Shown: positions 3,122 to 62,919, counted from the stretch's first letter. The stretch is DNA of 64,000 nt from a bacterium (GCA_021786315.1 JAJYNN010000002.1:462997-526996), one strand, 5' to 3'. A program made the numbers and translations. Notes: generated from the sequence alone by a model not told the origin.

Positions 3122-3562
3122 TCAGGGCCTGAATTTGGAGTTTCGTTTGACAAGTTTGGCGTTATAAACAATTTCCCTGACTTCCCCATCTTCCCCTTCA
3201 ATCTCGTTAGCCCCAGACATTCTTCTGAACTCTTGCAGGTAATCCGACAAAGCGGCTTTAAGCTCTTTGACCTCAGATCTTAAGCTTTTAACCTTTTCCG
3301 CCAGCTCAAAAACCTGGGGCTGTTTCATAATCTCTGCCCGGGTGGCAGATTTGATTTTTGCAGCTTCTTTGGCGGCCTCGGAGTGCGCCCGGTAAGTTTC
3401 ATCGTTTTCAAAGATGTCATCCAGCATCTCCTTGTGTTTTTTGGCTTCTTCGGAAATCCTATCAATACTCGAAACGTGGTTTTTAATCATCTGCTCAAGA
3501 TTGATGATAATAGCAGCCTGACTGGTGGTGTCAGCGGTTTGATTTACTTGTTCTTCGTCCAT
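3122..3562 (-). CDS. Hypothetical coiled-coil protein inserted between rplT and pheS
   Basis: ORF only; charged and helical, no motif recognised. Confidence 0.4.
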   Translation of the reverse strand: MDEEQVNQTADTTSQAAIIINLEQMIKNHVSSIDRISEEAKKHKEMLDDIFENDETYRAHSEAAKEAAKIKSATRAEIMKQPQVFELAEKVKSLRSEVKELKAALSDYLQEFRRMSGANEIEGEDGEVREIVYNAKLVKRNSKFRP

Positions 3563-5018: not shown

Positions 5019-6854
5019 TTAGCACAGGTTAGCTTTAGATTCAATCTTAGATTTTATATCCTTCAAAAATTCCTCAAAACCGACAGCGCCCAAGTCTTTG
5101 CCATCCCGGGTGCGGACGGCAACTTTACCCTCTTTTTCTTCCCGGTCTCCCACGATTAACATATAGGGAATCTTTTGCAGCTGGGCATCCCGGATCTTGG
5201 CCTGCATCTTCTCTGGCCGGGAATCGAGCTCGGCCCGGATATTTGAGGACTTTAATTGTTCGAGTAATTTTTGTGAATATTCCAGGTTCCTATCGGTAAT
5301 GGGTACAATTTGTACCTGGATTGGTGAAAGCCAGACCGGAAAAGCCCCGCCAAAATGCTCAAGCAGGAAACCGGCCATTCTTTCATGCGACCCCAAAGGA
5401 GCCCGGTGGATAATGTAAGGCATTTTTTCCTTTCCACCTTCGTCAATATAGGTTAAGTTAAATCTTTGTGGCATATAAAGGTCAAGCTGGGTGGTTCCGA
5501 TGGCGTACTCCTTGCCAATTGATGACTTAATGTAGATATCGAGCTTGGGACCATAGTGGGCAGCTCCGCCCTCTTCAATGACGAACTTAATTCCAGCCTT
5601 CTCTACAGCTTCTTTGGTGAGTTTTTCTGCTTCATCCCACATTTTGTCATCGCCATGGTACTTTTTGCGCAGATTTTTGGGATCCCTAACCCCAAGCACT
5701 GCCCACCATTCTTTAATACCCAGTTGGTCGTAGTAGTATTGGTGCATGTTCAAAACCGAGATAAACTCCTCCACTGCCTTTTCCGGTTGGACATAAATAT
5801 GGGCATCATTTTGGCAAAATCCCCTGACCCTCATTAGCCCATGGAGTGTTCCCGATCGCTCAAAACGGTACACTTGCCCGTATTCGGCGATTCTTAGGGG
5901 GAGTTCGCGGTAACTTCTGAGCTTACTTTTATAAATCATGTGGTGATGAGGGCAATTCATCGGTTTGAGGTAATACTTTTCCCCTTCGATATCAATTGGC
6001 GAATATAAATCCTCGGCATAGTATGGAAGATGCCCGGAAATTTTATAAAGGTCTTCCTTAGTGATATGCGGCGTATAAACCCTTTGGTAACCCCACTTAT
6101 TCTCGGTTTCCTTCGCCCAGTTTTCTATTTGCTCGCGGATAATTGTTCCTTTGGGAAGCCATAGTATCAAGCCTGCTCCAATCTCATCGGAAATGGTAAA
6201 GATTCCTAGTTCCTGGCCTAGTTTACGGTGGTCCCGTTTCTTGGCTTCCTCAAGCATATTCAGATATTCCTCCAGTTCTTCTTTGGTGGGAAAGACTGTT
6301 CCGTAAATCCTGGTCAACATCTTATTTTTTTCGTTCCCCCTCCAATAGGCTCCGGCAATAGAGAGAAGCTTAAACGGGCCAATTTGGGTAGTGTTTTCTA
6401 TATGTGGACCACGGCACAAGTCAGTGAAGCTGTCTAGCTTATAAAAACTGACACTTTCAACCTGGCTTACATTTGGTAGACGTTCTTCAGTGTCTAACTT
6501 TTCCAGGTCTTCTACTTCGGTATGGCCAGTTTCTTTAAGGTGCTCAATAAGTTCAGCTTTATAGAGTTGCCCCTCATTTTTCACAACATCCAAAGCCTTA
6601 TCGATTGGCATTTCCGATCTCTCAAAAGAAAGATTTTGTTTTTGGAGTTGCCTCATCTTTTCCTCGATCTTGGGAAGGTCTTCCTCAGTGATTGCCTTAG
6701 GGAGATCAAAATCGTAGTAGAAACCGTTCTCGATAACCGGGCCAACTCCAAATTTTGTACCTGGATAAAGCTCGTTGACTGCCGCAGCCAAAAGATGGGC
6801 AGTACTGTGACGCATTTTATTTAATTGTTCTTGTTTTTTATCGTCCATATGCAA
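5019..6854 (-). CDS. thrS: Threonine--tRNA ligase
   Basis: HSTAHLLAAAV editing-domain motif, class II core (FERSGTLHGLMRVRGF), C-terminal anticodon-binding domain. Confidence 0.9.
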   Translation of the reverse strand: MHMDDKKQEQLNKMRHSTAHLLAAAVNELYPGTKFGVGPVIENGFYYDFDLPKAITEEDLPKIEEKMRQLQKQNLSFERSEMPIDKALDVVKNEGQLYKAELIEHLKETGHTEVEDLEKLDTEERLPNVSQVESVSFYKLDSFTDLCRGPHIENTTQIGPFKLLSIAGAYWRGNEKNKMLTRIYGTVFPTKEELEEYLNMLEEAKKRDHRKLGQELGIFTISDEIGAGLILWLPKGTIIREQIENWAKETENKWGYQRVYTPHITKEDLYKISGHLPYYAEDLYSPIDIEGEKYYLKPMNCPHHHMIYKSKLRSYRELPLRIAEYGQVYRFERSGTLHGLMRVRGFCQNDAHIYVQPEKAVEEFISVLNMHQYYYDQLGIKEWWAVLGVRDPKNLRKKYHGDDKMWDEAEKLTKEAVEKAGIKFVIEEGGAAHYGPKLDIYIKSSIGKEYAIGTTQLDLYMPQRFNLTYIDEGGKEKMPYIIHRAPLGSHERMAGFLLEHFGGAFPVWLSPIQVQIVPITDRNLEYSQKLLEQLKSSNIRAELDSRPEKMQAKIRDAQLQKIPYMLIVGDREEKEGKVAVRTRDGKDLGAVGFEEFLKDIKSKIESKANLC

Positions 6855-12754: not shown

Positions 12755-12941
12755 GGAATGCTAAAGATATCAGAATAAATCACTTGTAGAGGGGTTGAGC
12801 TTGAAGATTTTTGGAGCGGGAGACGGGATGATCACTCCTCGCTGCGTTCGGAGTTGAACCTACTTAGCTCTGCGAGATGCGTATATTCCAAATGCGGGTC
12901 TTACTCACAAAAAATCAGCCACAAGGGCCGACATTTTTATG

Positions 12942-13013
12942 AGCGGGAGACGGGATTCGAACCCGCGACATCCTCGTTGGCAACGAGGCACTCTACCACT
13001 GAGTTACTCCCGC
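12942..13013 (-). tRNA. tRNA-Gly (anticodon GCC)
   Basis: RC reads GCGGGAGTAACTCAGTGGTAGAGTGCCTCGTTGCCAACGAGGATGTCGCGGGTTCGAATCCCGTCTCCCGCT. Confidence 0.85.
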
Positions 13014-13181
13014 GAACGTTAGTGAGCGGTGAGCACTTCCGCAGCCAATTTTTGGTTGGCGAGGAGTACTCCCACATTTTGGTGCCGCAGCCTGGAATAG
13101 GGCTACTCGCTAAAGCGAGATCCTGTTCCTGTCTGCTTCAAAATTTGTCTTTGCTGACACAAGGTCAGCACGACAAACTTG

Positions 13182-14607: not shown

Positions 14608-14742
14608 ACTTTTTGAGTTCTCCTATGAAAACCCTCCGGTTTCCCAGAGGGTTTTGAAAAAATAATTTCTTCAAACCAAAAATTATATTACCAAATTATT
14701 TGCCAAAGGCAAACAAGATCTTTGACGTAAGTCAAAGTAGAC

Positions 14743-15150: not shown

Positions 15151-15534
15151 CTACCTCCTTTCATTGAATATTTCGCTAAAGTTATTTTTTATAAAAGCCA
15201 ACTCCGCTTTAAACTTTTTAAGCTGCTCTATTCTTTGGTCGATAGATAAAATATAGTCGGGCAGTTTGCTTTCTGCATACTCTTTGGCAGCATTACAGTC
15301 TTTGTCTGTGCATTTTTCAATCAGTCTCTTTATATCTACCAGCGGAATATCCAAGGCCCTGAGTGCTTTTATTAAACGTAATTGTCTGATATCTTCGTTC
15401 AGGAAAATTCTGTATTTATTGTCTGCCCTTTGCAGGGGTTTAAAAATCCCTTTTTCCTCATAAAACCTGATTGTCTTTGCGGACATTCCCACTATTTTTG
15501 AAACCTGCCCAATAGTAAATTGTTTATCATTCAT
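15151..15534 (-). CDS. MerR-family transcriptional regulator
   Basis: N-terminal HTH FTIGQVSKIVGMSAKTIRFYEEKGI; coiled-coil dimerisation region; a CTDKDC cysteine pair. Confidence 0.8.
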   Translation of the reverse strand: MNDKQFTIGQVSKIVGMSAKTIRFYEEKGIFKPLQRADNKYRIFLNEDIRQLRLIKALRALDIPLVDIKRLIEKCTDKDCNAAKEYAESKLPDYILSIDQRIEQLKKFKAELAFIKNNFSEIFNERR

Positions 15535-15705
15535 AATTGGAGATTACACCTTCCACTAACTGGAATGTCAAGAGGTAAAATAGTGCTGTGGGACATGGAT
15601 TAGGGCTACTTTGACTTCGTCAAAGATCCTGTCAAGCTTCGCTTGATCGAACCCGCTTCCTTGTGCCAAGAGCGCGGATTCTCGGTTCAAAAGCACCAAA
15701 TACCA

Positions 15706-15739
15706 AAAATCCAGCCACAAAAGGACTGGATTTTTGCTA
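15706..15739 (-). terminator. Hairpin plus U-tract immediately 3' of tRNA-Gln (also reads as a hairpin plus T5 on the + strand)
   Basis: AAAAATCCAG..loop..CTGGATTTTT stem followed by a T-run. Confidence 0.5.
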
Positions 15740-15810
15740 GCTGCGGGACATGGATTCGAACCATGATAGACGGATCCAAAGTCCGTCGTCCTACCATTAG
15801 ACGATCCCGC
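15740..15810 (-). tRNA. tRNA-Gln (anticodon TTG), U1-A72 first pair, discriminator G
   Basis: RC reads TGCGGGATCGTCTAATGGTAGGACGACGGACTTTGGATCCGTCTATCATGGTTCGAATCCATGTCCCGCAG. Confidence 0.8.
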
Positions 15811-15927
15811 AATATGGATTTCTAACCATGAAATTATATCTAATTGGTGAGGAATCATCAACCGGAGATGCTTTGAAAACTCCCTCCTCCTTGTTGACAG
15901 GTAATTAGATATTGTTAAGATGCTTCC

Positions 15928-16353
15928 ATGGAGGTCGACCGTTCAAAAGAAGTTCAGCTAGGTTTGACAAGGGCTGTTGTTATAGCGCTGCCCAGCTTAC
16001 CAATGTCAGAACACAGACTGGGAAGTACTCTAGTCAAAGCAGTCAATTACTTCGGCAGAACTGTCGATGGAGATACACCTGTAAAAGATCTTTGTTTGCC
16101 ATCCTGGCACCATTTTCATTCTTTGGAGGAATGGGAATCACCTCTTTATCCCCTAGCCATACAGCTTCCAGAGAGACTTGTAACTTCCTGGAATCAGGGA
16201 ATAACTATATTGGTAGTCAGATTTTTACGGACAGGATCTCAGGATGCATTTCTCCTGGATGATCTTCGGGCCAGAAGGGACTTAATACGGGGGGTGACCA
16301 GGGAATATCAAAAGTCTGCTTTAGTCAGAGCTGCTTTTCGTATTGGTTACTAA
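15928..16353 (+). CDS. Hypothetical protein; the coding status of this roughly 450-bp region is uncertain, and a second overlapping + frame is also open
   Basis: ORF only; GC-richer than its surroundings. Confidence 0.25.
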   Translation: MEVDRSKEVQLGLTRAVVIALPSLPMSEHRLGSTLVKAVNYFGRTVDGDTPVKDLCLPSWHHFHSLEEWESPLYPLAIQLPERLVTSWNQGITILVVRFLRTGSQDAFLLDDLRARRDLIRGVTREYQKSALVRAAFRIGY

Positions 16354-16408
16354 AAGTAAGGGAAATTATTTTTTCAAGAAATATCTTGTGATACTATTTT
16401 CTTATTAC

Positions 16409-16747
16409 ATGGTTAAGAAAAGAGTTAGGGGTGGCTTATCTTTCTTCTTTTTTGTCCTCATAGTTGGACTTATTTTAGCAGCCTTTAATATTGCTGCTGG
16501 CATTGGTTTTTCACTACGAATACCTGTTGTTGACCAAAATTTAATGGCTGGGGTGGCAATTGGGAAAAAAGAAGCGGTTTTGGATACATTTCCGGGCTAC
16601 CTTCGAAGGAATTTAGCTCAAAATAACACCTTTTTTAACCAAAGCAATACCATAACCATTTGGCTCGCTGAAGGAGCTTATATTATTATTTTCGGCCAGC
16701 AGCCTAATGCCCCTCTGGCTGACCTTCAGGCTAAACTTCTCCGCTAA
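16409..16747 (+). CDS. Hypothetical membrane-anchored protein (start chosen at the internal Met before the TM)
   Basis: Single TM helix; precedes the ZIP transporter. Confidence 0.35.
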   Translation: MVKKRVRGGLSFFFFVLIVGLILAAFNIAAGIGFSLRIPVVDQNLMAGVAIGKKEAVLDTFPGYLRRNLAQNNTFFNQSNTITIWLAEGAYIIIFGQQPNAPLADLQAKLLR

Positions 16748-16778
16748 TTTTTACCTAATCTGGTATCATATTAAGGAT

Positions 16779-17501
16779 ATGACAGTCCTTTTTACCTTCT
16801 TTGCCTTTGTCTCCACCTTTTTGGGCGGTTTGGTGGGGATAAAATACAAAGATAAACTACACCTTATATTGGGCTTTACTGCGGGTGTCCTACTAGCAGT
16901 TGTGTCTTTTGATATTTTCCCGGAACTGGTGGACCTTATCCGAAAAACTGGGATGGATTCCCTTTATCCGATGATTGCCTTGGTGGGGGCTTTTATGCTC
17001 TTTCACATCCTGGAGAAAGTGCTTTTATTGCATCATTCCCATGAGGATACATATGGTGACCATAAACATCCGCATGTCGGGCTGGTTTCTGCCCTGGCTT
17101 TATCTGGCCATTCGTTTCTGGATGGTGTAGGAATCGGTTTGGGGTTTCAGGTTTCTTCCCTTGCCGGGTTCTTAATTGCTTTGGCGGTTATTGCCCACGA
17201 TTTTTCCGACGGATTAAATACCGTCTCCTTAATGCTGATGCACAAAAACACTTCCAAAAGGGCAATTATTCTACTTTTTGTAGATGCTTCGGCGCCGATT
17301 TTAGGAGGCCTCTCCACCTTACTCTTTAAGGTTCCGGAGAATTTCCTGGTTTTATATTTAGGGTTTTTTGCCGGATTTTTACTTTATATCGGGGCTTCTG
17401 ATATTTTGCCCGAAGCCCACAGTCGGCATTCCTCATATAAAACTATCCTGATGACTCTTCTGGGGGTGGCCTTAATTTTTGTGGTAACCAGATTTACTTA
17501 G
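16779..17501 (+). CDS. ZIP-family divalent metal (zinc) transporter, ZupT-like
   Basis: HSHEDTYGDHKHPHV His-rich loop; HSFLDGVGIG and IAHDFSDGL ZIP signatures. Confidence 0.8.
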   Translation: MTVLFTFFAFVSTFLGGLVGIKYKDKLHLILGFTAGVLLAVVSFDIFPELVDLIRKTGMDSLYPMIALVGAFMLFHILEKVLLLHHSHEDTYGDHKHPHVGLVSALALSGHSFLDGVGIGLGFQVSSLAGFLIALAVIAHDFSDGLNTVSLMLMHKNTSKRAIILLFVDASAPILGGLSTLLFKVPENFLVLYLGFFAGFLLYIGASDILPEAHSRHSSYKTILMTLLGVALIFVVTRFT

Positions 17502-20280: not shown

Positions 20281-20766
20281 TTATTCACCGGGTTTAAGCC
20301 ACTGGATATAGGCACAACCGGTAGCCTTTTTGGCTTCCTTGTCCCAGCCTGCAGTGGAACATTTCTTCATTCTTTTGCCGTTAGCTGTGGTGAATAAAAC
20401 CAAAGCTGCTCCGCAATCGGGGCACATTTCGTCTAAAGTTTCAGAAGTTCCGTTAATCCACTCAACATAGTCGCAACCTGTGGCTTGTTTGGCTTCCTTG
20501 TCCCAGCCTCCGGCGGAGCACTTTTTCATCTTCTTGCCAAAACGGGTCACTTGCATGATTAAAGCTGATCCGCATTTAGGACACTTTTCATCTAATTCCT
20601 GAGGCTCAACCTGCATCCACAAAACATAATCACAACCTTCGTTTTGCCTGGTTTGGGCATTCCAGGAACCGGCTGAACACCGGCGGAGCTTCCTGCCTGT
20701 TGGAGTTTCAATAACATCACCTAAAGCGGAGCCGCACTTTGGACAACTTTCGGAAGTATCTGACAT
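20281..20766 (-). CDS. Protein made of three tandem topoisomerase-type C4 zinc-ribbon modules
   Basis: Three repeats of CPKCGSAL..G(R/K)K..KCS.GGW....K...GCDY..W; the DNA also shows ~165-bp internal tandem repeats. Confidence 0.6.
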   Translation of the reverse strand: MSDTSESCPKCGSALGDVIETPTGRKLRRCSAGSWNAQTRQNEGCDYVLWMQVEPQELDEKCPKCGSALIMQVTRFGKKMKKCSAGGWDKEAKQATGCDYVEWINGTSETLDEMCPDCGAALVLFTTANGKRMKKCSTAGWDKEAKKATGCAYIQWLKPGE

Positions 20767-48076: not shown

Positions 48077-48105
48077 GTGATCCTGTACTTATACCTTTTT
48101 TGCAG

Positions 48106-49133: not shown

Positions 49134-49230
49134 CAAATTCAAAATTTGGGGTTTGCCTCCTAATTTTGAATTTACTCCTGGGTAGTCAGAATCCTCTTTG
49201 GGGTTTACATAATTTTCGCAGAAAATTACA

Positions 49231-49312
49231 GGATCGTTTTGACGAAGTCAAAAGGTAGCCCATTAGACAATGCGTTGTCGCAGGATCGTTTTGACGAAGT
49301 CAAAAGGTAGCC
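49231..49312 (+). repeat. Two direct copies of a 32-nt palindrome-containing unit (CAGGATCGTTTTGACGAAGTCAAAAGGTAGCCC) separated by 18 nt, immediately followed by a mature-like copy of the tRNA-Arg 3' end
   Basis: The two copies are identical; the unit is the same motif family as those downstream of tRNA-Phe and tRNA-Gln. Confidence 0.7.
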
Positions 49313-49382
49313 CTAATCCCTCCGGGCGCGCCACCCTATCTCCTTGCTTCCCAATCCAAAGATAGATTACTATTAAACTGAT

Positions 49383-50525: not shown

Positions 50526-50597
50526 GAGCGGGATAGGGGGATCGAACCCCTGACATTCTGCTTGGAAAGCAGACGTTCTACCGCTGAACTAATCCCG
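50526..50597 (-). tRNA. tRNA-Gly (anticodon TCC)
   Basis: RC reads GCGGGATTAGTTCAGCGGTAGAACGTCTGCTTTCCAAGCAGAATGTCAGGGGTTCGATCCCCCTATCCCGCT. Confidence 0.85.
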
Positions 50598-50705
50598 CGA
50601 GTGTTACGAGCGAGGTTAGTGAAGTGGCAGGACCAGTCTGAAAGACTAGCCTACCGCCGAACTAATCCCGCAATAGGAAGTATTTTACCAAATTTTACTT
50701 AAAAT

Positions 50706-54638: not shown

Positions 54639-54698
54639 TCGTGGTGGCTGTAGCTCAGCGGTAGGCTAGTCTTTCAGACTGGTCCTGCCACTTCACTA
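54639..54698 (+). repeat. 26-nt copy of the tRNA-His 5' end (tcG-1 plus acceptor plus D-arm to GCGGTAG) fused to a 34-nt element GCTAGTCTTTCAGACTGGTCCTGCCACTTCACTA, 14 nt upstream of the real tRNA-His
   Basis: Exact identity of 54639..54664 with 54709..54734; the 34-nt element recurs in inverted orientation next to tRNA-Gly(TCC). Confidence 0.7.
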
Positions 54699-54712
54699 CA
54701 TTCCCACTTCGT

Positions 54713-54788
54713 GGTGGCTGTAGCTCAGCGGTAGAGCGCCTGCCTGTGGAGCAGGATGTCGAGGGTTCAACTCCCTTCAGCCACCCCA
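54713..54788 (+). tRNA. tRNA-His (anticodon GTG) with encoded G-1 and encoded CCA
   Basis: G GTGGCTGTAGCTCAGCGGTAGAGCGCCTGCCTGTGGAGCAGGATGTCGAGGGTTCAACTCCCTTCAGCCACCCCA. Confidence 0.85.
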
Positions 54789-62311: not shown

Positions 62312-62919
62312 CTCCTTTATCTAAAAGACATTCTAGAGCTTATAGTTAAAAAAGGAGTGAGCTACATGTAAGAAAAGATTATGATTGCAAAGTAATCTCA
62401 AGTTTTGACCATAACTGCTTCAAATTGGATTTGTTATTTGGGGTGAACTATTATCCGGTTTGACTATGGATGAAGCCAAAGTCGGCAGAGCAAAGAAAAC
62501 CAAAAAAGTAATAATCATAAAAATTAAGAGTCCAACTAAAAACCCAATTTCAAATCCTTGTGTATCAGCCGCTATCATTGGTGGAAATCCGGGGTCGGTT
62601 TTTACATCTGGTGTATCATCTTGAAGCGGGGCGTCCATACAAATTTGTGAAAATTGTCAAACTGCCCCTTTTCACGGCTGTGCCTGTAACAGCGTTAAAA
62701 AGTATGAGTTGTGGAGTTATAGGGCTACCTTCGGCTTCGCCGAACGATCCTGTAATTTCTCTCCGCCAAAAGCGGATCGAAATTATTGACCTATTGCCTA
62801 TAATCCCCGCAGCTCTAACCTTTTGTGGCAGTAACTTTTTGAGAGTCATCTTCGTTCCTTTCAACCGCAATATTAGTCCTTTTTGTTGAAAGAATTACGA
62901 GGGGTGTGTAATAAAAATG

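Follow-up and report, generated by a model that had tools for sequence, protein, structure and literature searches.

What is a second, slightly altered copy of the end of a tRNA-Gln gene doing downstream of that gene, and why does it abut a hairpin motif that recurs beside other tRNA genes? The locus that raises this question lies in a 64-kb stretch of bacterial DNA (64,000 nucleotides, hereafter the window) belonging to a genome of ~0.94 Mb; our enzyme and ORF searches cover the window. Going by its galU homologs, we judged the host to be a member of Candidatus Daviesbacteria (Microgenomates, CPR).

The intact tRNA-Gln(ttg) gene occupies 15740-15811 on the minus strand (ARAGORN; Rfam tRNA, 64 bits). 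Its last 17 nt, tRNA positions 58-74, lie at 15740-15756 (minus strand) and form the inner copy of a direct repeat (family D11). The outer copy, AATCCATGTCCCACAGC, lies on the same strand at 15585-15601 and matches positions 58-74 at 16 of 17 nt, the one difference being a G-to-A change (repeat scans; p about 0 against shuffles). A sequence-only reading made earlier had described this 17-nt copy with its single mismatch, and we recovered it at 15601-15585; the gap between the tRNA end and the outer copy, given there as 137 nt, measures 138 nt. When the tRNA-Gln end was sought throughout the window with up to 3 mismatches, 2 matches were returned against 0.10 expected.

The gap is filled by a non-coding insert of 138 nt (15602-15739, minus strand, as delimited from the sequence and the DNA fold). 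In the sense of the tRNA, the gene is followed by a terminator-like hairpin, two to three more hairpins, a module and the outer copy. The terminator-like hairpin, which carries a T-run and lies directly 3' of the gene (15704-15736, minus strand; terminator and inverted-repeat scans), is the gene-proximal end of the insert and the only hairpin at this locus that qualifies as an intrinsic terminator, the module hairpin having no T-run. A second hairpin, P2 (CAAGC-GAA-GCTTG; 15633-15645, minus strand), was recognized from the alignment, RNAalifold and the fold. The terminal module, P1, at 15602-15632 (minus strand), reads ACAGGATC-TTTGAC-GAA-GTCAAA-GTAGCCCT, in full ACAGGATCTTTGACGAAGTCAAAGTAGCCCT, and was identified by pattern, covariation and covariance model. 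Folded as DNA, the insert forms four hairpins with a free energy of -31.1 kcal/mol (z = -5.6). It has no Rfam match even at E<=5, and a search of the insert for a second region identical or complementary to its tRNA returned nothing significant. The inner copy completes a normal tRNA, which is followed by the terminator-like hairpin supplied by the insert; the outer copy joins the module directly and runs into the native downstream flank.

The heptamers CAGGATC and GTAGCCC, which the earlier reading had considered conserved around stems that differ between loci, do define a family. The pattern CAGGATC-N8-30-GTAGCCC occurs five times in the window (13100-13125, 15603-15631, 49229-49261, 49281-49313 and 62722-62752) against 0.00 expected from 100 shuffles, and the stem reads (C)TCGC/GCGA(G) at Phe and TTTGAC/GTCAAA at Gln, as had been claimed. 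One module follows tRNA-Phe, one follows tRNA-Gln, two lie in tandem after tRNA-Arg and the fifth (62722-62752) stands apart from any tRNA. At the Phe, Gln and Arg loci, 17 nt copied from the 3' terminus of the upstream tRNA directly abut the module. The sister element at Phe spans 13082-13180 on the minus strand (repeat family D9), with the insert at 13099-13180 and the module at 13099-13126; its outer copy (13082-13098, minus strand; direct-repeat scan) matches at 17 of 17 nt and is followed by CA, so that it reads CCA. The element at tRNA-Arg(tct) spans 49135-49331 on the plus strand (D3, D10), its tandem modules (49229-49261 and 49281-49313) being 19 nt apart, and its outer copy (49315-49331, plus strand; direct-repeat scan) is likewise a 17/17 match that with the following CA reads CCA. 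A full-length member downstream of a dksA-like gene (62702-62880, minus strand; pattern and alignment) has no detectable flanking repeat (p = 0.95), and this orphan copy showed no significant match to the adjacent dksA 3' end. The covariance model and follow-up scans also pointed to a degenerate module, CAAGATC-TTTGAC-GTAA-GTCAAA-GTAGAC, at 14714-14742 on the plus strand.

The family extends beyond the window, contrary to the possibility, raised with the original claim, that no further instances would be found. Our metagenome scan yielded 26 loci, of which 10 carry the module with a clear hairpin (8 of these hairpins are perfect and 2 contain a single mismatch or wobble; L131 and L143 have identical sequences); the remaining loci are chance matches in high-GC coding sequence. 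Viral contigs scanned for the module gave chance matches only, and a loose 14-base pattern applied to public genomes gave 120 chance matches, none with the hairpin. We aligned 15 modules by hand with their hairpins in register, an alignment that leans towards hairpin structure because it was built around the hairpin; in it, 98.9% of the cells of the 7-pair stem are paired and 18 cells are changed on both sides. Covariation as high as that observed arose in none of 500 shuffles, and sliding the 3' partners by 1-3 columns abolished the signal. Of the 15 modules, 14 have the loop C-GAA-G. A covariance model built from this alignment (R1) regained all members and added a decayed copy after the tRNA-Thr(tgt) of L124; the Gln module, whose sequence was in the training alignment, scores 35.2 bits (E about 9e-7). 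Pattern and covariation thus bear out the view of the Gln locus as an independent instance of a repeated family with covarying stems.

Six members (Gln, Arg and 62722 of the window, together with L131, L137 and L141) are full-length in that they have ~100 further nt upstream of the module in common. This stretch contains a GGTTCRAT motif and a second hairpin that pairs through two-sided changes (AATTTC/GAAATT, AATTTT/AAAATT and, at Gln, CAAGC/GCTTG), the position of P2 in the Gln insert matching that of AATTTC...GAAATT in the other members. Whichever strand is folded, the inserts are much more stable than their shuffles (z -3.9 to -5.6), and they contain no ORF. Searches of the window and 7 loci against Rfam returned only tRNAs at gathering scores, and nothing overlapped the elements at E<=5. 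No terminal inverted repeats were found in the three elements scanned, which have internal hairpins only. As to the strand, the G-U/G-T pairs are divided, L124 pointing one way and L125 the other. The C-GAA-G triloop is familiar chiefly from DNA, where it forms a mini-hairpin of unusual stability, and this slightly favours a hairpin that acts as DNA.

These features are compatible with the structured RNA or protein-recognised site that the sequence-only reading had proposed. That description omits the main point, namely the duplication around an insert: the module is the conserved distal tip of an insert of 45-190 nt, and the tRNA-end copy is the displaced half of the duplication that flanks it. 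We examined such duplications irrespective of the module by seeking the first or last 16 nt of each tRNA within 400-500 nt outside its gene. As controls we used 15 tRNAs in 0.9 Mb of unrelated bacterial loci and 13 tRNAs in L170 and L171, the related genomes that alone, among the loci reached via galU homologs, kept tRNA neighbours. Six of the 13 window tRNAs have a copy of their own end (positions 58/59-74 for 3' ends, position 1 to the D-loop for 5' ends) lying 50-200 nt outside the gene, compared with 1 of 15 tRNAs in the unrelated loci and 0 of 13 in L170 and L171. The 3' end is duplicated at Gly-gcc, Phe, Gln and Arg, and the 5' end at Gly-tcc and His; further tRNA-end copies occur in L124, L125, L131, L135, L137 and L142. 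An unbiased direct-repeat scan of the whole window, with repeat spacing up to 450 nt, agrees in that the long exact direct repeats are mainly tRNA ends (His 26, Gly-gcc 22, Gly-tcc 21 and Phe, Arg and Gln 17 nt each).

The tRNA-Gly(gcc) 3'-end duplication (12808-12956, minus strand, D5; 22 nt, 91% identity, 16 exact) encloses an insert with a different hairpin module, CGCATCTCGCAGAGCTAAG..., which it has in common with the Phe insert of L135. Among the 5' ends, tRNA-His has an exact 26-nt duplication (54639-54734, plus strand, D4) around a 44-nt insert beginning GGCTAGTCTTTCAGACTGGTCCTGCC, and tRNA-Gly(tcc) has a 21-nt duplication with 1 mismatch (50578-50671, minus strand, D6). The first 35 nt of the Gly-tcc insert are identical to those of the His insert, which argues for recent copying. 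The layout is constant throughout: intact gene end, variable part, conserved hairpin, displaced copy. Its polarity is constant too: every module that is accompanied by a repeat abuts the outer copy. A terminator-like hairpin opens the variable part of 3'-type inserts; at 5'-type loci, the native TGnTAAAAT-like promoter is still joined to the displaced copy, so that the insert falls in the tRNA leader. The hairpin modules differ by insert and follow the loose pattern (A)GGCT(AC)-hairpin-G(A/G)TCCTG, copy inward. Repeats are 12-26 nt long, and their inner boundary is always at a loop-coding position: T-loop 58/59, D-loop positions 10-21 or, in one L142 insert, the 7-9 junction. Protein genes are also affected. 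In L136, a LepA/EF-G-like GTPase gene has its start repeated imperfectly over 26 nt around a 56-nt member, and a related hairpin lies in frame inside the same gene between 12-nt TATACCCTA(G/A)AC repeats. Four 3'-type outer copies (Phe, Arg and Gly-gcc of the window, and that of L137) read CCA where the working gene has C74 and then the insert. No repeat was detectable at 62722, at the first Arg module, or in L125 and L128. What recurs, then, is a small non-coding insert with a covarying terminal hairpin, flanked in fixed polarity by terminal gene duplications of 12-26 nt.

Orthologous loci show which of the two copies is native. The tRNA-Gln gene is empty in L170, where ...GCAGCCA is followed by agtagggcaccc, and filled in L137, where the outer copy reads ...GCAGCCAagtagggcatccc, i.e. 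GCAGCCA and then agtagggcatccc. Likewise, tRNA-Gly(gcc) is empty in L170 and L171 (...CGCTCCA) and filled in the window, with an outer copy ...CGCTCCAAAAATC. The inserts are therefore present or absent at orthologous tRNA-Gln and tRNA-Gly(gcc) genes, as is usual for mobile elements, and the native flank resumes after the outer repeat; it follows that the outer copy is the native gene end and that the insert and the inner copy were added. The copies also differ in age. At tRNA-Phe, module-like hairpins occur in three genomes (the window, L135 and L170); the repeats are perfect only in the window and L135, each matching its own tRNA, and are decayed in L170. Decayed repeats were also seen at two L124 Thr loci and at the Leu loci of L135 and L170. 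A series from perfect to decayed repeats is what insertion followed by neutral decay predicts. The Gln elements of the window and L137 are more closely related to each other than to any other member, yet there is clear divergence between their scaffolds, and each outer copy matches the T-stem variant of its own genome (CCATG versus CCAAG, in the window and L137). This combination is at odds with one old insertion that then decayed neutrally; it is consistent with recent insertions made independently by a lineage specialised on Gln, or with co-evolution.

The explanation that we prefer, and to which we give about an even chance of being correct, is that the family consists of non-autonomous insertion elements that enter loop-coding positions, generate a 12-26 nt target duplication that preserves the gene, and use the hairpin as a terminal recognition site. 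Insertion would begin at a break in a loop-coding position of the gene. The module end, CAGGATC-stem-GAA-stem-GTAGCCCT, would be joined precisely to the DNA from the loop outward and the other element end, less precisely, just outside the gene; filling in of the staggered ends would then duplicate the terminal gene segment, and an essential single-copy tRNA would survive because its terminus is duplicated. The module could act as a folded single strand read by a trans-acting enzyme, which would be encoded outside the window. Several observations count against this insertion reading. None of the ~58 window ORFs matches a transposase, integrase, reverse transcriptase, Cas/TnpB, HUH or GIY-YIG family, so that no mobilising enzyme was found in the window; the large ORFs without family matches are multi-pass membrane or secreted proteins. 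We know of no prokaryotic transposition mechanism that combines a 12-26 nt duplication with one precise and one variable end. The members without a detectable repeat (62722, the first Arg module, L125 and L128) weigh in the same direction, as does the fact that the repeat often stops exactly at the mature tRNA end (+1 or C74) and not at scattered positions beyond, which simple staggered cutting does not predict. Diverged Gln relatives whose outer copies match their own tRNA variants are likewise unexplained by insertion. A decayed tandem tRNA copy, considered as an origin of the repeats, was rejected since different tRNAs have one and the same foreign module between their repeats.

The repeat can be read quite differently if it exists because the element carries its own guide. 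An omegaRNA- or crRNA-like scaffold would then end in the module, and the 16-19 nt tRNA-end copy would be the guide for a non-cleaving effector, for instance in RNA-guided homing or insertion beside the protospacer. The dimensions suit such an RNA, with a structured scaffold of 100-140 nt, a conserved hairpin, a variable segment of 16-19 nt, guide-sized copies that abut the module in every case and a 19-nt spacer-like segment between the two Arg modules. A TAM-like (Y)CGA precedes the matched target in 6-7 module-family cases, the Gln outer copies track the tRNA variant of their own genome, and the Leu-like copy CTCCTCTCATCCGCAC is common to L135 and L170 even though their tRNA-Leu 3' ends differ. 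The MerR gene and TAAAAT box that flank the Gln outer copy recall CvkR, which belongs to type V-K CRISPR-associated transposons. However, this MerR gene has its own canonical promoter and most likely regulates the divergent operon ending in a ZIP transporter, which is the more plausible role for it. As a promoter for an antisense guide RNA, a box was convincing only at Gln, where it is the divergent MerR promoter, and weak elsewhere; this candidate was set aside, and the promoter-like boxes upstream of the copies are altogether inconsistent. No Cas12, TnpB, IscB or transposase occurs in the window or the family loci, no Rfam family, guide-RNA families included, matched at gathering scores or at E<=5, and a perfect target with an adjacent motif in the same locus would make an active nuclease lethal. 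Moreover, the senses of the module are opposite in the 3' and 5' types if transcription is from the tRNA promoters, the element lacks a second tRNA-complementary region, and the module is intact beside many decayed or absent copies (e.g. L124, L125 and 62722). A self-matching guide RNA therefore seems to us rather unlikely. We regard homing-type replacement of gene ends as unlikely. Under this model a site-specific endonuclease cuts the loop of an empty tRNA gene, repair copies in the new end together with the insert, the native end is displaced, and the non-coding elements are passengers or remnants. Related Patescibacteria do have GIY-YIG ORFs of 81-97 aa in the order promoter, displaced pseudo-5' tRNA-Gln copy, ORF and intact tRNA-Gln. 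In L170, L173, L174 and L175, ORFs of 82-97 aa lie between a displaced pseudo-5' tRNA-Gln, split after position 10 by a conserved GC-rich hairpin, and the intact gene. L171 has a similar 81-aa ORF, flanked by a decayed pseudo-tRNA-Gly on one side and the intact tRNA-Gly on the other. Gene-end duplication is thus a device that selfish cassettes of this clade use as well. The inner boundary of the GIY-YIG cassettes is the D-loop position (after GGTA) seen in the non-coding L142 insert; homology-driven spread would be expected to give locus-specific lineages, of which the window and L137 provide an example in their Gln elements; and there is a precedent in fungal mitochondria, where the GIY-YIG ORF at Allomyces atp6 carries a replacement 3' end, related cases having turned up in the literature. 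Against homing, tblastn with two GIY-YIG proteins revealed no ORF or remnant in the window or the module-bearing loci, and the GIY-YIG loci in turn have no module, which leaves a mechanistic link between the two hypothetical. Phe, Gln, Arg, Trp, Thr and Leu tRNAs and a protein gene all have the same module; it must have spread frequently to non-homologous sites, which is impossible by homing. The filled allele also keeps an intact tRNA, leaving its immunity to the endonuclease unexplained.

Two further explanations were considered. The hairpins and pseudo-ends might be cis-acting signals of the host for termination, precursor processing or stability, with the duplications arising via slippage. 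This would be in keeping with the terminator-like hairpin at the gene-proximal end of the 3'-type inserts, with the certain transcription of 5'-type inserts that lie between a tRNA promoter and its tRNA, and with the strong structure of the inserts (z -3.9 to -5.6). It is hard to reconcile with the lack of inserts at the 13 tRNAs of the two related genomes and with empty orthologous sites, with modules that lie away from tRNAs (62722, L125, L128 and L134) and at or within protein genes, and with the fact that slippage puts no single foreign module between repeats at different genes; we think it improbable. The other possibility, which appears highly improbable, is that the repeats are scars of tyrosine integrases, i.e. 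attL and attR at the tRNA T-loop with the island interior deleted. A tRNA 3'-end copy that starts in the T-loop is the classic signature of integration, one case being present in control locus L028, and Williams is said to have reported in 2002 that it marks integrase-mediated events. Yet each integrase/attP pair is specific for its core, and here one module adjoins no fewer than 6 different tRNA cores. Duplicated 5' ends and protein-gene starts are also out of keeping with such scars. The repeat begins at 58/59 and leaves out part of the T-loop overlap region, and no integrase gene or remnant was found among the window ORFs.

We also compared the elements of the window with known systems. They share with the homing-endonuclease cassettes (Allomyces atp6 and the GIY-YIG loci of L170-L175) a selfish insert at the end of an essential gene, an intact end with a displaced pseudo-end, and an inner boundary at a conserved functional site. 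They differ in having no endonuclease or other ORF and many non-homologous targets, and the GIY-YIG cassettes for their part lack the conserved terminal hairpin of the window elements. Like the PATEs of IS200/IS605 and the omegaRNA of TnpB, the elements have no terminal inverted repeats and have a sub-terminal hairpin 8-9 nt before the element end; an AGGA 5' of the hairpin can pair with the last bases, CCCT, as in IS200/IS605, and the variable 16-17 nt past the end resemble a TnpB guide, with a CGA motif preceding the target. In contrast, IS200/IS605 elements have a conserved hairpin at the left end and do not duplicate their target, whereas conservation is confined here to the module end (even the copies with 35 identical nt differ at the other one), repeats of 12-26 nt flank the inserts, the window has no TnpA or TnpB, and there is no Rfam match. 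The elements matched none of the Rfam families considered (omegaRNA/HEARO, ribozymes, sRNAs and riboswitches).

As in REP/BIME sequences, Rickettsia palindromic elements and MITEs, we are dealing with short, abundant, non-coding hairpin repeats in a small genome that form mosaics of hairpin units, and one variant lies in frame in a protein gene; we know of none of these that duplicates tRNA gene ends. REPs have GTAG 5' of the hairpin and make no target duplication, whereas GTAG lies 3' of the module hairpin on its strand, and no Y1 transposase was found in the window. MITEs have terminal inverted repeats and short fixed duplications; the elements scanned here have neither, their duplications being 12-26 nt long. 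Target-primed reverse transcription of SINEs and LINEs offers parallels: the 3' stem-loop is conserved, the other end varies and looks truncated (43-190 nt), target duplications are of variable length (12-26 nt), and there are tandem copies. Unlike in those systems, no reverse transcriptase was seen here, and the first cut would need to differ between element subfamilies; to our knowledge, target-primed reverse transcription is not established in bacteria outside group II introns. Homing crRNAs of type V-K CAST likewise combine a truncated repeat with a ~17-nt spacer matching a nearby tRNA gene, and the Gln locus has a MerR-type regulator. The window, however, contains no Cas12k, TnsB, TnsC or TniQ, nor any other Cas or Tns protein among its ORFs; the repeat has an unrelated sequence, the host is no cyanobacterium, copy and target are separated by 50-200 nt and not by a transposon of 10-30 kb, and copies are solitary or at most two in tandem, unlike a CRISPR array. 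In sum, the elements partly resemble homing gene-end duplication, IS200/IS605 right ends, REP and Rickettsia palindromes and SINE-like insertion, and the defining features of none of these are present. We found no description of this arrangement in the literature, and a paper on group I introns in Patescibacteria tRNAs is silent on it.

A bolder proposal, which we offer tentatively and consider somewhat unlikely, is a new kind of bacterial mobile element that chooses its target via nucleic-acid structure or base pairing and not through a sequence-specific protein. It could be either a small RNA that carries a guide of 16-20 nt and is inserted beside its match or a SINE-like retroelement copied into nicks in tRNA loops. 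If this were true, the duplicated terminus would let the essential single-copy tRNAs of a reduced CPR genome be colonised harmlessly. Genomes of these bacteria are ~1 Mb in size with single-copy tRNA genes, and about half of the tRNA genes in the window have a gene-preserving insert, a frequency that points to an efficient gene-sparing insertion process. The enzyme behind the inserts could reveal a new structure-guided or RNA-guided form of DNA insertion, and its discovery would account as well for tRNA pseudo-fragments and assembly breaks in genomes of Patescibacteria. Earlier tRNA sequences are moreover recorded, like fossils, in the outer copies, among them encoded CCA ends that have been lost from the present genes. 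As a minor observation on the data sets themselves, Logan contigs of ~1 kb break at these repeats.

Two further sites in the window resemble parts of the inserts that lie beside its tRNA genes. The heptamer CAGGATC, which flanks the stem of the conserved hairpin module at the outer tip of the Phe, Gln and Arg inserts, was found 2 nt 5' of tRNA-Leu(taa), within the 28-nt spacer that follows tRNA-Pro (48077-48104). This site scored weakly, at 13 bits, with R1, the covariance model built from 15 aligned modules, and it may be a module remnant. Upstream of tRNA-Gly(gcc), at 13014-13081, we noted GTGGGAGTACTC, a degenerate copy of that gene's own 5' end; a hairpin, GCCAA...TTGGC, comes after it. 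The same region carries a CTCACTAAC motif in common with the Gly-tcc leader insert, and the His insert of the window has a close variant, TTCACTAC. The region upstream of tRNA-Gly(gcc) is probably an old 5'-type insert, that is, one with a displaced copy of the 5' end of the gene. With respect to the 3' ends, position 74 is C in all 13 window tRNA genes, only two or three of which encode the full CCA; CCA is present in the displaced outer copies at tRNA-Phe, tRNA-Arg and tRNA-Gly(gcc).

Around the MerR gene and tRNA-Gln (15535-15600 and 15151-17501), the MerR promoter reads TTGACA-17-TGTAAT, with an inverted repeat located between the boxes. A divergent TAAAAT box is directed through the pseudo-copy, the insert and then the antisense of tRNA-Gln, with two ORFs of unknown function and a ZIP zinc transporter lying ahead. 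A divergent regulatory region seems to enclose tRNA-Gln and its insert.

Logan contigs assembled from short reads of this organism (loci L121, L164 and L165) terminate exactly at the degenerate module (14714-14742) and at the tRNA-end copies, and these repeats therefore break assemblies. In another database locus, L125, tandem arrays (1701-1870 and 2074-2190) are built of units comprising a tRNA 5' copy and an insert of about 32-40 nt, each insert being partly complementary to its adjacent copy; three such units precede tRNA-Arg(ccg) and two precede tRNA-Ser(cga).

Small GIY-YIG ORFs of 81-97 aa occur at tRNA genes of five other loci. At L170 (9217-9640) and at L173, L174 and L175 (each about 5900-6330), the ORF is bracketed by an intact tRNA-Gln and a displaced pseudo-5' copy of it, which is always interrupted after position 10 by a conserved GC-rich hairpin of 35-40 nt, CCCGCCTCG...CGAGGCGGG. 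At L171 (8489-8900) the ORF follows a decayed pseudo-tRNA-Gly and overlaps tRNA-Gly by 8 nt, at the 5' end of the gene.

A LepA/EF-G-like GTPase gene in locus L136 contains an in-frame insertion immediately ahead of the DTPGH motif: a hairpin unit of 27 nt, GGCAAC-GAA-GTTGCC-GCAAGCTCTGCT (3380-3450). Flanked by TATACCCTA(G/A)AC repeats, this unit is reminiscent of Rickettsia palindromic elements. Other repeats in the window include heptamer tandem repeats (AATTTTA, AATTCAT, GAATTAG, AATTAAG and similar; 4-5 copies per site) at 264, 3993, 9445, 9915, 10969, 37644 and 52730, several of them at ORF boundaries, and an internal direct repeat of 86 nt (78% identity) within a 161-aa ORF (20294-20538) that has multiple zinc-ribbon motifs.
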